Below are positions 63 to 54,553 of a stretch of 64,000 bases of DNA, one piece after another. Position 1 is the first letter of the stretch. Each line of letters opens with the position of its first letter. The translations under genes and the position numbers were made by a program. The notes beneath the pieces were generated by a model, which had not been told where the DNA came from, did no database searches, and saw only the letters and a list, made by a program, of their open reading frames with translations. Origin of the DNA: Escherichia coli (GTDB taxonomy: Bacteria > Pseudomonadota > Gammaproteobacteria > Enterobacterales > Enterobacteriaceae); assembly GCF_024502345.1 (NCBI RefSeq), contig NZ_JALDNN010000001.1; one strand, given 5' to 3'.

Positions 63-1283
63 TGTAGATTCAATTGGTCAACGCAACAGTTATGTGAAAA
101 CATGGGGTTGCGGAGGTTTTTTGAATGAGACGAACATTTACAGCAGAGGAAAAAGCCTCTGTTTTTGAACTATGGAAGAACGGAACAGGCTTCAGTGAAA
201 TAGCGAATATCCTGGGTTCAAAACCCGGAACGATCTTCACTATGTTAAGGGATACTGGCGGCATAAAACCCCATGAGCGTAAGCGGGCTGTAGCTCACCT
301 GACACTGTCTGAGCGCGAGGAGATACGAGCTGGTTTGTCAGCCAAAATGAGCATTCGTGCGATAGCTACTGCGCTGAATCGCAGTCCTTCGACGATCTCA
401 CGTGAAGTTCAGCGTAATCGGGGCAGACGCTATTACAAAGCTGTTGATGCTAATAACCGAGCCAACAGAATGGCGAAAAGGCCAAAACCGTGCTTACTGG
501 ATCAAAATTTACCATTGCGAAAGCTTGTTCTGGAAAAGCTGGAGATGAAATGGTCTCCAGAGCAAATATCAGGATGGTTAAGGCGAACAAAACCACGTCA
601 AAAAACGCTGCGAATATCACCTGAGACAATTTATAAAACGCTGTACTTTCGTAGCCGTGAAGCGCTACACCACCTGAATATACAGCATCTGCGACGGTCG
701 CATAGCCTTCGCCATGGCAGGCGTCATACCCGCAAAGGCGAAAGAGGTACGATTAACATAGTGAACGGAACACCAATTCACGAACGTTCCCGAAATATCG
801 ATAACAGACGCTCTCTGGGGCATTGGGAGGGCGATTTAGTCTCAGGTACAAAAAACTCTCATATAGCCACACTTGTAGACCGAAAATCACGTTATACGAT
901 CATCCTTAGACTCAGGGGCAAAGATTCTGTCTCAGTAAATCAGGCTCTTACCGACAAATTCCTGAGTTTACCGTCAGAACTCAGAAAATCACTGACATGG
1001 GACAGAGGAATGGAACTGGCCAGACATCTAGAATTTACTGTCAGCACCGGCGTTAAAGTTTACTTCTGCGATCCTCAGAGTCCTTGGCAGCGGGGAACAA
1101 ATGAGAACACAAATGGGCTAATTCGGCAGTACTTTCCTAAAAAGACATGTCTTGCCCAATATACTCAACATGAACTAGATCTGGTTGCTGCTCAGCTAAA
1201 CAACAGACCGAGAAAGACACTGAAGTTCAAAACACCGAAAGAGATAATTGAAAGGGGTGTTGCATTGACAGATTGAATCTACA
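63..1283 (+). mobile_element. IS30, complete 1221-bp copy
   Basis: Starts TGTAGATTCAATTGGTCAACGC, ends GATTGAATCTACA (terminal inverted repeats); length 1221 bp; single 383-aa transposase ORF; flanked by 2-bp GC direct repeat. Confidence 0.9.
125..1276 (+). CDS. insI: IS30 transposase
   Basis: 383-aa ORF with N-terminal HTH and DDE transposase; matches IS30 InsI as I recall it. Confidence 0.93.
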   Translation: MRRTFTAEEKASVFELWKNGTGFSEIANILGSKPGTIFTMLRDTGGIKPHERKRAVAHLTLSEREEIRAGLSAKMSIRAIATALNRSPSTISREVQRNRGRRYYKAVDANNRANRMAKRPKPCLLDQNLPLRKLVLEKLEMKWSPEQISGWLRRTKPRQKTLRISPETIYKTLYFRSREALHHLNIQHLRRSHSLRHGRRHTRKGERGTINIVNGTPIHERSRNIDNRRSLGHWEGDLVSGTKNSHIATLVDRKSRYTIILRLRGKDSVSVNQALTDKFLSLPSELRKSLTWDRGMELARHLEFTVSTGVKVYFCDPQSPWQRGTNENTNGLIRQYFPKKTCLAQYTQHELDLVAAQLNNRPRKTLKFKTPKEIIERGVALTD

Positions 1284-1620: not shown

Positions 1621-2231
1621 TAGATGCTACGGATATCCATATCCAGAACTTCAGCAATCTGATATGGATTATAACCAGAAACCATATACCCCATTATGGT
1701 GAATTCCATCTGAGTTAATGTGTTACCTCTGGTAAATGATAAATAACGACCAATAAATAGTTGTCTGATCTTTTCATTGGCAACATCAAGACCATCATCA
1801 TTATATATGACAGCAGATATTGCTGAGTTGTGTTTTCGCCAGTAATTAGCTAACGATTGCATATTGCGGTCGCTGACTAAAACAATCCCCATGTCAGTAC
1901 TTGCAAGATAGTCAATCCAGTCTTTTTCAAGGAATAGACGTAAAAAACTTACTGAAAAATCGACAAAAATATATCCGCTTAATCTCGCATTGTGGTTTTT
2001 AGTTAAGATACCTTCTACCACACCACGATTAAAATATGAACTTTCTTCGGGCCACATACAAAAACACGAGTTTGCGCAGTACTGCAAACGCGGTGACTCT
2101 TCTGGCATTATTTGGCAATGCATTGAGCAACTATTGCATGTAAGACTTTTATAACGACTACAAAGCCCCATGTTAAGAACCTCCCTATCCGTATATAATT
2201 GCATAATTTCATTGGTGATTGATGATGTCAA
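1602..2231 (-). CDS. yqeH: LuxR-family (GerE-type HTH) transcriptional regulator, YqeH-like; last codons supplied by the IS3 terminus
   Basis: 209-aa ORF; C-terminal LuxR-type HTH (..GNTLTQMEFTIMGYMVSGYNPYQIAEVLDMDIRSIY); sits next to the yqeG remnant as in K-12; stop codon lies inside the IS3 end. Confidence 0.6.
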   Translation of the reverse strand: MTSSITNEIMQLYTDREVLNMGLCSRYKSLTCNSCSMHCQIMPEESPRLQYCANSCFCMWPEESSYFNRGVVEGILTKNHNARLSGYIFVDFSVSFLRLFLEKDWIDYLASTDMGIVLVSDRNMQSLANYWRKHNSAISAVIYNDDGLDVANEKIRQLFIGRYLSFTRGNTLTQMEFTIMGYMVSGYNPYQIAEVLDMDIRSIYDLTQQ

Positions 2232-2585
2232 TACACCATGATTTTGTAATTTTGCTGGGAAAAATTGCGATTAATCTGTATTTGCTATAATTCTGATTAA
2301 GACATTTTAAAATGCATTTCTCGTTATTAAATATGATTATGTTTCACTGATTTAATCTTACCTGGTTGAGGGTGGTTCAGATAACTATCTCATGGTATGA
2401 GAATATCTATATCGCAAATTGTTTTTGAATGACCAGAAGATATCTTGCGAATCTAAGTTATGCATCTTAAATGGTCTTATTTAAGATGTTCAGATCTCTT
2501 TGTGTGTTTAACTAACTGATAATACTAGGATATGATGAGAGAAGTGATAGGGCGGAATAATAACGAATGAACATTATGAAAACTG

Positions 2586-2620
2586 GAATGGTTCAAAATT
2601 GTAGCAATTTTGAACCATTC
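2586..2620 (-). terminator. Probable terminator hairpin downstream of the yqeG remnant
   Basis: Perfect 15-bp inverted repeat GAATGGTTCAAAATT / AATTTTGAACCATTC with 5-nt loop, directly after the yqeG stop, followed on the minus strand by a U-rich tract. Confidence 0.4.
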
Positions 2621-2630
2621 ACAATGGATA

Positions 2631-2865
2631 TCAGCTAAAGAACATTACCGATACGCACAGGATACCCACGATCAGCGTAATCAGATTTCCGATGGAACGC
2701 CAGGGTTTAAGCGCCGGGATCAGATACGTTGACAACGTAGGCATGATGAAAAGTATCATGGCAATGAGCGGGCCGCTGATCGCGTAAATCATCGAAATCG
2801 CGTTCGGGTTAATGCAACAAACAATGAAGGTGATCAGCGATACCAACATAATTGATAGTGCGCGG
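2631..2865 (-). pseudogene. yqeG: yqeG remnant: C-terminal ~77 codons of an HAAAP-family (SdaC/TdcC-like) transporter, truncated by IS903
   Basis: Frame ..GPLIAMILFIMPTLSTYLIPALKPWRSIGNLITLIVGILCVSVMFFS* aligns with the C-terminus of SdaC in this same window (..[51 protein letters not shown]); upstream part of the frame is IS903 sequence. Confidence 0.65.
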
Positions 2866-3922
2866 GGCTTTGTTGAATAAATCGAACTTTTGCTGAGTTG
2901 AAGGATCAGATCACGTATCTTCCCGACAACGCAGACCGTTCCGTGGCAAAGCAAAAGTTCAAAATCACCAACTGGCCCACCTACAATAAAGCCCTCATCA
3001 ACCGTGGCTCCATAACTTTCTGGCTGGATGATGAAGCTATTCAGGCCTGGTATGAGTCAGCAACACCTTCTTCACGAGGCAGACCTCAGCGCTATTCTGA
3101 CCTTGCCATCACGACTGTGCTGGTCATTAAACGCGTATTCAGGCTGACCCTGCGCGCTGCGCAGGGCTTTATTGATTCCATTTTTTCTCTGATGAACGTT
3201 CCGCTACGCTGCCCGGATTACAGCTGTGTCAGCAGGCGGGCAAAGTCGGTTAATGTCAGTTTCAAAACGCCCACCCGGGGTGAAATCGCACACCTGGTAA
3301 TTGATTCCACCGGGCTGAAGGTCTTCGGTGAAGGCGAGTGGAAAGTCAAAAAGCATGGCCAGGAACGCCGCCGTATCTGGCGTAAGCTGCATCTCGCCGT
3401 TGACAGTAAAACACATGAAATCATCTGCGCTGACCTGTCGCTGAACAACGTTACGGACTCAGAGGCCTTCCCCGGGTTAATCCGGCAAACCCACCGGAAA
3501 ATCAGGTCAGCCGCCGCCGATGGCGCTTACGATACCCGGCTATGTCACGATGAACTGCGGCGTAAGAAAATCAGCGCGCTTATCCCTCCCCGAAAAGGTG
3601 CGGGTTACTGGCCCGGTGAATATGCAGACCGTAACCGTGCAGTGGCTAATCAGCGAATGACCGGGAGTAATGCGCGGTGGAAATGGACAACAGATTACAA
3701 CCGTCGCTCGATAGCGGAAACGGCGATGTACCGGGTAAAACAGCTGTTCGGGGGTTCACTGACACTGCGTGACTACGATGGTCAGGTTGCAGAGGCTATG
3801 GCCCTGGTACGAGCGCTGAACAAAATGACGAAAGCAGGTATGCCTGAAAGCGTGCGTATTGCCTGAAAACACAACCCGCTACGGGGGAGACTTACCCGAA
3901 ATCTGATTTATTCAACAAAGCC
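2866..3922 (+). mobile_element. IS903-group (IS5 family) element, complete 1057 bp, no target-site duplication
   Basis: Left end GGCTTTGTTGAATAAATCG at 2866, inverse copy ending at 3922; exactly 1057 bp; flanks agtgcgcgg / cattcttct do not match, whereas IS903 normally makes a 9-bp duplication. Confidence 0.85.
2943..3866 (+). CDS. IS903-type DDE transposase (307 aa from a GTG start)
   Basis: ORF ..GLKVFGEGEWKVKKHGQERRRIWRKLHLAVD..DGAYDTR..SIAETAMYRVK; the track ORF begins at TTG 2898, but GTG 2943 gives 307 aa, which I recall as the IS903 transposase length. Confidence 0.8.
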   Translation: MAKQKFKITNWPTYNKALINRGSITFWLDDEAIQAWYESATPSSRGRPQRYSDLAITTVLVIKRVFRLTLRAAQGFIDSIFSLMNVPLRCPDYSCVSRRAKSVNVSFKTPTRGEIAHLVIDSTGLKVFGEGEWKVKKHGQERRRIWRKLHLAVDSKTHEIICADLSLNNVTDSEAFPGLIRQTHRKIRSAAADGAYDTRLCHDELRRKKISALIPPRKGAGYWPGEYADRNRAVANQRMTGSNARWKWTTDYNRRSIAETAMYRVKQLFGGSLTLRDYDGQVAEAMALVRALNKMTKAGMPESVRIA

Positions 3923-3940
3923 CATTCTTCTTACTTTTAT

Positions 3941-3966
3941 GACCCTGCCGCATGGCAGGGTTTTTT
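3941..3966 (+). terminator. Intrinsic terminator; probably the 3' terminator of the deleted upstream gene (kduD in K-12)
   Basis: GC stem CCCTGCC / GGCAGGG with 4-nt loop followed by TTTTTT, 20 bp after the IS903 end. Confidence 0.45.
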
Positions 3967-4135
3967 ATATCTGTAGATCATCATAATCCATATCATGGTT
4001 ATGAAATAATCCATATCAATTATCAATTAATGAACTTTATGAATTTTATCTGCTGTAAAATTAGGTGATTAATAATAATATCAATAATTCAACTTAATTT
4101 GAAAATTGGAATATCCATCACATAACGACATGTCG

Positions 4136-4170
4136 TAGCAATTTAATCCATATTTATGCTGTTTCCGACC
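4136..4170 (+). promoter_or_regulatory. araE promoter region with AraC half-site pair
   Basis: TAGCAATTTAATCCATA followed by TTTATGCTGTTTCCGAC resembles the AraC TAGCn7TCCATA motif, about 70 bp upstream of the araE start. Confidence 0.45.
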
Positions 4171-4234
4171 TGACACCTGTGTGAGTTGTTCACGTATTTT
4201 TTCACTATGTCTTACTCTCTGCTGGCAGGAAAAA

Positions 4235-5653
4235 ATGGTTACTATCAATACGGAATCTGCTTTAACGCCACGTTCTTTGCGGGATACGCGGCGTATGAAT
4301 ATGTTTGTTTCGGTAGCTGCTGCGGTCGCAGGATTGTTATTTGGTCTTGATATCGGCGTAATCGCCGGAGCGTTGCCGTTCATTACCGATCACTTTGTGC
4401 TGACCAGTCGTTTGCAGGAATGGGTGGTTAGTAGCATGATGCTCGGTGCAGCAATTGGTGCGCTGTTTAATGGTTGGCTGTCGTTCCGCCTGGGGCGTAA
4501 ATACAGCCTGATGGCGGGGGCCATCCTGTTTGTACTCGGTTCTATAGGGTCCGCTTTTGCGACCAGCGTAGAGATGTTAATCGCCGCTCGTGTGGTGCTG
4601 GGCATTGCTGTCGGGATCGCGTCTTACACCGCTCCTCTGTATCTTTCTGAAATGGCAAGTGAAAACGTTCGCGGTAAGATGATCAGTATGTACCAGTTGA
4701 TGGTCACACTCGGCATCGTGCTGGCGTTTTTATCCGATACAGCGTTCAGTTATAGCGGTAACTGGCGCGCAATGTTGGGGGTTCTTGCTTTACCAGCAGT
4801 TCTGCTGATTATTCTGGTGGTCTTCCTGCCAAATAGCCCGCGCTGGCTGGCGGAAAAGGGGCGTCATATTGAGGCGGAAGAAGTATTGCGTATGCTGCGC
4901 GATACGTCGGAAAAAGCGCGAGAAGAACTCAACGAAATTCGTGAAAGCCTGAAGTTAAAACAGGGCGGTTGGGCACTGTTTAAGATCAACCGTAACGTCC
5001 GTCGTGCTGTGTTTCTCGGTATGTTGTTGCAGGCGATGCAGCAGTTTACCGGTATGAACATCATCATGTACTACGCGCCGCGTATCTTCAAAATGGCGGG
5101 CTTTACGACCACAGAACAACAGATGATTGCGACTCTGGTCGTAGGGCTGACCTTTATGTTCGCCACCTTTATTGCGGTGTTTACGGTAGATAAAGCAGGG
5201 CGTAAACCGGCTCTGAAAATTGGTTTCAGCGTGATGGCGTTAGGCACTCTGGTGCTGGGCTATTGCCTGATGCAGTTTGATAACGGTACGGCTTCCAGTG
5301 GCTTGTCCTGGCTCTCTGTTGGCATGACGATGATGTGTATTGCCGGTTATGCGATGAGCGCCGCGCCAGTGGTGTGGATCCTGTGCTCTGAAATTCAGCC
5401 GCTGAAATGCCGCGATTTCGGTATTACCTGTTCGACCACCACGAACTGGGTGTCGAATATGATTATCGGCGCGACCTTCCTGACGCTGCTCGACAGCATT
5501 GGCGCTGCCGGTACGTTCTGGCTCTACACTGCGCTGAACATTGCGTTTGTGGGCATCACTTTCTGGCTCATTCCGGAAACCAAAAATGTCACGCTGGAAC
5601 ATATCGAACGCAAACTGATGGCAGGCGAGAAGTTGAGAAATATCGGCATCTGA
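4235..5653 (+). CDS. araE: Arabinose:H+ symporter (MFS sugar porter)
   Basis: 472 aa from ATG 4235 ([15 protein letters not shown]..); the track ORF starts earlier at GTG 4181. Confidence 0.93.
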
Positions 5654-53377: not shown

Positions 53378-53404
53378 TTTCGTAAAGCAACAAGGAGAAG
53401 GATG

Positions 53405-54553
53405 ATGGCTAACAGAATGATTCTGAACGAAACGGCATGGTTTGGTCGGGGTGCTGTTGGGGCTTTAACCGATGAGGTGAAACGCCGTGGTTATCAGAAG
53501 GCGCTGATCGTCACCGATAAAACGCTGGTGCAATGCGGCGTGGTGGCGAAAGTGACCGATAAGATGGATGCTGCAGGGCTGGTATGGGCGATTTACGACG
53601 GCGTAGTGCCCAACCCAACAATTACTGTCGTCAAAGAAGGGCTCGGTGTATTCCAGAATAGCGGCGCGGATTACCTGATCGCTATTGGTGGTGGTTCTCC
53701 ACAGGATACTTGTAAAGCGATTGGCATAATCAGCAACAACCCGGAGTTTGCCGATGTGCGTAGCCTGGAAGGGCTTTCCCCGACCAATAAACCCAGTGTA
53801 CCGATTCTGGCAATTCCTACCACAGCAGGTACTGCGGCAGAAGTGACCATTAACTACGTGATCACTGACGAAGAGAAACGGCGCAAGTTTGTTTGCGTTG
53901 ATCCGCATGATATCCCGCAGGTGGCGTTTATTGACGCTGACATGATGGATGGTATGCCTCCAGCGCTGAAAGCTGCGACGGGTGTCGATGCGCTCACTCA
54001 TGCTATTGAGGGGTATATTACCCGTGGCGCGTGGGCGCTAACCGATGCACTGCACATTAAAGCGATTGAAATCATTGCTGGGGCGCTGCGAGGATCGGTT
54101 GCTGGTGATAAGGATGCCGGAGAAGAAATGGCGCTCGGGCAGTATGTTGCGGGTATGGGCTTCTCGAATGTTGGGTTAGGGTTGGTGCATGGTATGGCGC
54201 ATCCACTGGGCGCGTTTTACAACACTCCACACGGTGTTGCGAACGCCATCCTGTTACCGCATGTCATGCGCTATAACGCTGACTTTACCGGTGAGAAGTA
54301 CCGCGATATCGCGCGCGTTATGGGCGTGAAAGTGGAAGGTATGAGCCTGGAAGAGGCGCGTAATGCCGCTGTTGAAGCGGTGTTTGCTCTCAACCGTGAT
54401 GTCGGTATTCCGCCACATTTGCGTGATGTTGGTGTACGCAAGGAAGACATTCCGGCACTGGCGCAGGCGGCACTGGATGATGTTTGTACCGGTGGCAACC
54501 CGCGTGAAGCAACGCTTGAGGATATTGTAGAGCTTTATCATACCGCCTGGTAA
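53405..54553 (+). CDS. fucO: L-1,2-propanediol oxidoreductase (lactaldehyde reductase)
   Basis: 382 aa from MANRMILNE; iron-containing alcohol dehydrogenase family. Confidence 0.93.
   Translation: MANRMILNETAWFGRGAVGALTDEVKRRGYQKALIVTDKTLVQCGVVAKVTDKMDAAGLVWAIYDGVVPNPTITVVKEGLGVFQNSGADYLIAIGGGSPQDTCKAIGIISNNPEFADVRSLEGLSPTNKPSVPILAIPTTAGTAAEVTINYVITDEEKRRKFVCVDPHDIPQVAFIDADMMDGMPPALKAATGVDALTHAIEGYITRGAWALTDALHIKAIEIIAGALRGSVAGDKDAGEEMALGQYVAGMGFSNVGLGLVHGMAHPLGAFYNTPHGVANAILLPHVMRYNADFTGEKYRDIARVMGVKVEGMSLEEARNAAVEAVFALNRDVGIPPHLRDVGVRKEDIPALAQAALDDVCTGGNPREATLEDIVELYHTAW

Follow-up and report, generated by a model that had tools for sequence, protein, structure and literature searches.

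Insertion sequences (IS) that lack a target-site duplication usually owe its absence to an adjacent deletion or else to recombination between IS copies (PMC11708052). In the first of these routes, intramolecular replicative transposition 'in cis' turns the DNA lying between an IS and its target into a circle that is discarded, so that a single IS without abutting duplications remains (PMC4471558). Adjacent deletions in cis are known for IS1, IS26 and IS903; IS903B has been proposed to have deleted 15 kb of the K. pneumoniae KPNIH1 chromosome (PMC4471558), and IS903 adjacent deletions are common, need both IS ends and are tied to the replicative (cointegrate) pathway (PMC11708052). In the long-term evolution experiment, which provides further examples with IS150, 14 of 14 IS-associated deletions without duplication had a prior resident IS at that position (PMC11708052). 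A 62-kb deletion in E. coli C, associated with an IS5 element of the IS903 sub-group, has in turn been proposed to stem from capture of the IS at a double-strand break (PMC11708052).

The locus analyzed here lies in a 64,000-nucleotide stretch of E. coli (NCBI RefSeq assembly GCF_024502345.1, contig NZ_JALDNN010000001.1), hereafter the window. It shares with the known adjacent deletions an intact IS at the junction, a deletion that starts exactly at the IS end, one old and one new flank, and no duplication. It differs from them in that the insertion known at the same site comes from other genetic backgrounds only, and that the replicative step is one that we infer. With the E. coli C deletion the window has in common the central role of an IS of the same sub-group and the absence of a target duplication, but in E. 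coli C the new IS copy arose with the deletion within one overnight culture, whereas the left junction in the window points to a resident copy. The element itself agrees with IS903 and IS903B, the IS of Tn903, in its length of 1057 bp, its perfect 18-bp GGCTTTGTTGAATAAATC repeats and its single DDE transposase, and differs from these elements in general only in that this copy is not framed by a 9-bp target duplication, an absence that the deletion accounts for and that is not intrinsic to the element. Unlike a Tn903-like composite, in which inverted IS903 copies surround a passenger, the window contains one IS903 copy and lacks a passenger segment. Both the element and the mechanism are thus already known: IS903B and a textbook IS-mediated deletion, with no new kind of system.

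The initial annotation had described an IS903-type element of 1057 bp with intact 18-bp terminal repeats at 2866-3922, and this description holds, the terminal inverted repeats matching at 18 of 18 positions and the element proving to be IS903B. Its boundaries were fixed by alignment to 14 other copies (Table 1). Over its full length it shows 99.2% identity to the annotated 'IS5-like element IS903B' of E. coli NH-21, and it is identical at the nucleotide level (100%) to six further copies (L035, L037, L041-L044). The exact transposase sequence occurs in 6,407 blocks of the protein collection index, under the annotation IS903B family transposase, and the precomputed domain hits on this exact protein, PF13737 and PF01609, are those of a DDE transposase. 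If counted from an internal GTG, the transposase would by our reading be 307 aa long. The element in the window is an intact, presumably active IS903B. The missing duplication is a trace of its insertion history and does not weaken the identification.

Table 1. Features at and around the IS903B junction (window coordinates).
Feature	Coordinates	Strand	Basis
Chimeric ORF, 107 aa, beginning at a TTG within the left end of IS903 and continuing into the yqeG remnant	2631..2954	-	
yqeG 3' remnant, 235 nt: last 77 codons, stop and 1 nt of a split codon	2631..2865	-	Alignment to NH-21 and YJ6; translation
AGTGCGCGG, 9-bp left flank of IS903B, inside yqeG	2857..2865	.	Identical 9 bp beside the IS903 right end of L057 and L058, contigs from other strains
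IS903B, complete, 1057 bp (IS5 family, IS903 group)	2866..3922	+	99.2-100% full-length identity to annotated IS903B copies
Left inverted repeat (IRL), GGCTTTGTTGAATAAATC	2866..2883	+	Direct sequence reading; inverted-repeat pairing
IS903B transposase ORF, uninterrupted, 322 aa from TTG	2898..3866	+	
Right inverted repeat (IRR), exact reverse complement of IRL	3905..3922	-	Sequence reading; inverted-repeat pairing
CATTCTTCT, 9-bp right flank of IS903B, starting 2 bp past the kduD stop	3923..3931	.	Reference reads ...GCGCGTTAATT followed directly by CATTCTTCT
kduD-araE intergenic region, 312 of 314 bp kept, including the araE promoter region	3923..4234	+	Colinear with NH-21, YJ6 and L049
kduD intrinsic terminator hairpin, then a T-run	3941..3962	+	Terminator scan; RNA fold
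araE (arabinose:H+ symporter), intact, 472 aa, ATG at 4235	4235..5653	+	Annotated araE in references

All reference loci fetched have, read in the orientation of the window, the gene order yqeI(-), yqeH(-), yqeG(-), yqeF(+), kduI(+), kduD(+), araE(+), ygeA(+), lysR(-) and lysA(+). The gene content and order that had been given for the K-12 interval are therefore correct; the size of about 4.5 kb calls for a small correction, since the DNA missing from the window amounts to exactly 4,347 bp (L001 10494-14840; YJ6, L045, 10339-14685). This interval comprises 995 nt of the 5' part of yqeG, the whole of yqeF, kduI and kduD, and two further bases. Window positions 1621-2865 align from yqeH' to the 3' end of yqeG at 99.6% identity with NH-21 and 99.9% with YJ6, and all that remains of yqeG to the left of the IS (2631-2865) is the last 77 codons and the stop, as estimated from the first reading of the sequence. 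We take the product of yqeG to be a HAAAP/SdaC-like amino-acid permease. At this left breakpoint the reference reads ...GATAGTGCGCGG up to the break and TTAAATGCAC beyond it. The reference alignment resumes at window position 3923, directly after IRR, and both flanks are colinear with their orientation unchanged. Around the right breakpoint, the reference sequence has ...CTGGCGCGTTAATT before the break and CATTCTTCTTAC after it, where TAA is the kduD stop codon and the break lies 2 bp beyond. No sequence of kduD, kduI or yqeF was found elsewhere in the 64-kb window, nor was a second IS903 copy found within it.

To the right of the IS, the terminator hairpin followed by the araE promoter that had been noted there were both recovered: the kduD hairpin begins 18 nt past the IS end and has a 9-bp stem with a folding energy of -16.9 kcal/mol (z = -4.6), and the araE region is retained. 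The exact AraE protein, found in 20,903 blocks of the collection index, is a very common allele. Colinearity with E. coli YJ6 extends over window positions 3923 to 64000, where the two sequences share 99.0% identity; a 383-aa ORF at 53402-54553, first taken as a second IS30, is fucO, and the window is colinear with YJ6 there. The junction also creates a chimeric ORF between IS903 and the yqeG remnant (Table 1). Neither its 107-aa form nor its 87-aa contig-edge version is on record as a called gene, and it is probably non-functional.

The two 9-bp sequences that abut the element, AGTGCGCGG on the left and CATTCTTCT on the right, differ, as had been noticed at the outset; by manual count they agree at 2 of 9 positions, and a search for a 9-bp direct repeat around the IS903B of the window found none. 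As a control, the flanks of 14 other IS903-family copies in fetched loci were inspected, and 11 of them show perfect 9-bp duplications. The absent duplication is hence an exception, and it signals a later rearrangement. The three control copies without 9-bp repeats lie in IS-rich or otherwise unclear contexts. In uninterrupted yqeG, AGTGCGCGG is present once at the insertion position. The copy of AGTGCGCGG in the window would thus represent the surviving left copy of the original 9-bp target duplication generated upon insertion into yqeG, and CATTCTTCT would be the 9-bp target of the strand transfer that formed the deletion.

The distribution of this junction was assessed among complete E. coli RefSeq genomes. 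The whole region, flanks and IS included, was found in 0 of 5,426 genomes. With the IS removed from the query, both flanks are present in 5,423 genomes and adjacent to each other in 0 of the 5,426, and in none of these complete genomes are the genes absent from the locus, be it with or without an IS. Exact matches to the deletion junction were likewise found neither in GTDB representative genomes nor in JGI metagenome contigs. Exact-protein look-ups with AraE, the truncated YqeH, the 72-aa YqeG C-terminus and the IS903 transposase, aimed at a relative carrying the junction, returned only very common alleles at the canonical locus. Among contigs with the exact Aas allele of the window, a near-identical relative (L049; 4 mismatches in 18.6 kb, 99.97% identity) retains yqeF-kduI-kduD and an undisturbed right-breakpoint sequence. 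Taken together, the absence of the junction from all 5,426 genomes and the retention of the genes in this relative indicate that the deletion is derived, and it appears to be limited to one strain or clone.

An insertion of IS903 into yqeG without any deletion would be the expected precursor of such a junction, and was searched for with a predicted 344-aa chimera composed of the N-terminal part of YqeG and its read-through into IRR, ending in ...NKSDFG. The exact chimera is on record in four short-read contigs. Two of these, L057 (ERR13116779) and L058 (SRR524810), run through lysR-ygeA-araE-kduD-kduI-yqeF-yqeG5'-...TTAACCGCGCACT and break off 30 nt inside the right end of IS903. Their IS903 occupies the same yqeG base in the same orientation as that of the window, with AGTGCGCGG adjoining IRR, and their yqeF, kduI and kduD are intact. 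The contigs end at the IS, where an assembly is expected to break at a repeat. Compared with this allele, the window lacks 4,356 bp, beginning precisely at the outer end of IRR, a pattern characteristic of an IS-adjacent deletion. In the araE region, 33-46 substitutions in 2,646 bp (1.2-1.7%) separate the precursor contigs from the window, and they are therefore not its clone; that the lineage of the window once carried the same allele is what we infer from them. L057 and L058 differ from each other at 46 positions in 7 kb. Their identity over 1.4 kb beside the IS was considered as proof of common descent and rejected, since this stretch is almost invariant among many strains. No IS903 end at this yqeG site was found in the 5,426 complete genomes.

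These observations are best accommodated by a two-step history, to which we assign a probability of roughly 0.6, in which IS903B inserted into yqeG and then generated an adjacent deletion by intramolecular replicative transposition. In the first step, IS903B would have entered yqeG near codon 332 and duplicated the 9-bp target AGTGCGCGG, giving in the lineage of the window the allele that is seen in other strains. In the second, the resident IS903B would have transposed replicatively 'in cis' into CATTCTTCT, 4.35 kb to its right, resolving the chromosome into two circles with one IS copy each. The circle bearing the right-hand AGTGCGCGG, the 5' part of yqeG, yqeF, kduI and kduD (4,356 bp) would have had no replication origin and would have been lost, and the chromosome would have retained one intact IS with its old left junction unchanged and its right end on a new flank. 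The combination of an old left flank with a new right flank leaves no matching 9-bp repeat. The precursor-type allele seen in other strains would set the order of events and favors an adjacent deletion, which on grounds of parsimony is one event away from that allele, compared to two for recombination between two IS copies. The initial annotation had proposed that either of these two processes removed the 5' part of yqeG together with yqeF, kduI and kduD, and the mapping of both breakpoints where it placed them supports this proposal.

Recombination between two copies would have involved a second IS903B in direct orientation at CATTCTTCT, just downstream of kduD, with RecA-dependent exchange between the two 1,057-bp copies excising 4.35 kb and one IS. 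The product would be the same sequence as that of an adjacent deletion, one intact IS bordered on each side by DNA from a different parental insertion, and recombination between IS copies is a frequent cause of absent duplications (PMC11708052). IS903-family elements cluster in this neighborhood in other strains, and insertions near the 3' end of kduD do occur. An ENA contig of 4,480 bp (L062) carries a 4,376-bp yqeG'-yqeF-kduI-kduD segment bounded by IS903 left ends on both sides, with a second IS903 joint that follows ...CATTCTTCTTACTTTTATGA and is 11 nt to the right of the right breakpoint in the window. The two IS903 copies of this contig are nevertheless inverted relative to each other, with IRL facing the segment on both sides, and recombination between them would yield an inversion and not a deletion; the arrangement in the contig could have arisen by a duplicative inversion, which is what the intramolecular reaction yields 'in trans', or by two insertions independent of each other. 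Neither the 5,426 complete genomes nor the JGI metagenome contigs yielded an IS903 at CATTCTTCT, a negative result that weighs little because the yqeG::IS903 allele is likewise absent from complete genomes. It needs two extra events where an adjacent deletion needs one, and we regard recombination between two copies as a serious but less probable origin of the junction.

A chimera of the opposite orientation (...NKSNFC) at the same yqeG position was identified in at least 6 contigs, and the contigs with insertions at the yqeG site are mutually divergent, with 24-80 SNPs over 4.4-7 kb. As both orientations are seen, the site has been hit at least twice independently, and a shared site is no proof of shared ancestry; the yqeG site behaves as a recurrent IS903 target. 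A target consensus for IS903 was reportedly described by Hu and Derbyshire in 1998. Inspection by eye of 12 IS903 insertion contexts revealed no obvious target consensus. A broader interpretation holds that IS903 prefers two targets here, AGTGCGCGG in yqeG and an AT-rich stretch directly 3' of kduD, and that in natural E. coli it repeatedly brackets, inverts, deletes or mobilises yqeG'-yqeF-kduI-kduD as a nascent Tn903-like composite transposon. It draws on the use of one yqeG position in both orientations and in several divergent backgrounds, on the bounding of the block by IS903 ends on both sides in L062, where it lies between inverted ends much as a passenger does in a Tn903-like composite, and on the location of two independent IS903 joints within 11 bp downstream of kduD. 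We consider this interpretation improbable.

Returning to the junction in the window, an adjacent deletion from a resident IS903B can also be set against a single event combining insertion and deletion, for instance the capture of IS903 at a double-strand break with no prior resident copy. Cases of this type without target duplication have been reported (PMC11708052), and no precursor was recovered from the lineage of the window itself. The left junction, however, matches to the base an independent, ordinary IS903 insertion site with a AGTGCGCGG duplication, an unlikely coincidence for a random break, which makes a single event highly unlikely. An assembly artefact, in which two IS903 copies flanking the 4.35-kb segment were collapsed and the segment dropped, appears barely plausible. 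Repeat collapse is a known failure mode, and L062 shows that the segment can have IS903 ends on both sides; the window, on the other hand, is unbroken through multi-copy IS3, IS30 and IS903 and colinear with YJ6 over 60 kb, a continuity typical of assemblies that are finished or built from long reads, in which 1-kb repeats at a distance of 4 kb are resolved, whereas short-read assemblies break at these IS (L057-L063). That the window could represent the ancestral state, with other E. coli having gained yqeF-kduI-kduD, is refuted by a yqeG cut mid-codon at the IS and a retained kduD terminator orphaned from its gene; both flanks occur in 5,423 of 5,426 genomes and are next to each other in none.

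The deletion costs the organism four genes, yqeG by truncation and yqeF, kduI and kduD entirely, all of which are dispensable and non-essential. In the reference annotations, YqeF is an acetyl-CoA acetyltransferase (thiolase) and YqeG an amino-acid permease; under osmotic stress, KduI and KduD help to convert galacturonate and glucuronate (PMC3578941). With terminator, promoter region and araE all intact, the deletion should leave arabinose transport via AraE unchanged. The practical meaning of the locus is limited, and it opens no new biological question. That IS903 has repeatedly used one site in yqeG, as well as the kduD 3' region, is its only mildly new aspect. The locus is a clean natural example of an IS without target duplication that marks a deletion, and the precursor allele can be recovered from public short-read data, which makes it a useful case for teaching and annotation. 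It may also point to an insertion hot spot for IS903: if the two sites do prove to be preferred targets, the window would be one outcome of a recurrent process acting on a block that carries hexuronate and thiolase genes.

At least 10 short-read contigs, drawn from divergent strains, have an IS903 end joined to the same base of yqeG, equivalent to window 2865/2866. This joint was found in both orientations, with the right inverted repeat (IRR) abutting yqeG in L057 and L058, two contigs that carry IS903 in yqeG, and the left inverted repeat (IRL) in contigs L059-L063. By sequence comparison, these joints indicate that the yqeG site is a recurrent target of IS903 and has received two or more independent insertions. 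An IS903 end at that yqeG base was found in none of the 5,426 complete E. coli genomes searched.

In one of these contigs (L062), IS903 left ends flank a 4,376-bp yqeG'-yqeF-kduI-kduD segment at both sides, the second joint falling beside the foot of the kduD terminator, at a point equivalent to window 3942/3943. Such an arrangement could correspond either to a duplicative inversion or to a Tn903-like composite whose IS903 copies are inverted. As a separate observation, the yqeG-yqeF-kduI-kduD gene block has been struck independently by a further IS, which interrupts kduD in locus L015 and which, from a reading of its ORFs, looks IS150-like.

Coordinates of insertion elements and associated features in the window and in loci or contigs from other strains
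Feature	Sequence	Position	Strand	Details
IS3 copy, partial	window	start to 1620		window begins within IS3; IS3 end adjoins truncated yqeH at 1620/1621
IS30, complete	window	63-1283		1221 bp; splits IS3 copy
Predicted 107-aa ORF	window	2631-2954	-	TTG start inside IS903 left end; continues into yqeG remnant
IS903-family element	L001	8001-9057
IS903-family element	L002	8001-9057
IS903-family element	L003	7067-8123
IS903-family element	L004	7195-8250
IS903-family element	L039	5969-7025
Different IS, interrupting kduD	L015	3515-5129		GCA_001559615.2, CP014268.2; two ORFs, 173 and 283 aa
4.5-kb contig	L062	1-4480		ENA ERZ1745006 NODE_8515

The reading frame spanning the IS903 left end in the window is a putative chimeric membrane-peptide ORF, for which there is no called gene on record. 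From araE to truC (3923-64000), an interval that includes recBCD, the fuc operon and sdaCB, the window is colinear with the reference E. coli strain YJ6 and contains no further IS. Identity differs among relatives: it is 99.0% overall with YJ6, rising to 99.6% across the first 24 kb, and 99.97% with contig L049 across 18.6 kb.

At the start of the window, the IS30 is bordered by a 2-bp duplication, GC (61-62 and 1284-1285). Window and locus L016 share the IS3-yqeH' junction at 100% identity, and the 189-aa YqeH' that results from it appears in 10,794 index blocks of the protein collection, which indicates that the junction is both common and old. In loci that carry this junction, the gene directly after IS3 is the one that bears the annotation actS in other loci examined, and the ETT2-side genes (yqeI to ygeH) are missing.

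Within the yqeI-yqeH-yqeG neighbourhood, IS903-family elements sit at five distinct sites in unrelated complete genomes, each insertion presenting a perfect 9-bp duplication and one of the five elements sharing just 88% identity with IS903B. The yqeI-yqeH-yqeG region appears to collect IS903 insertions.
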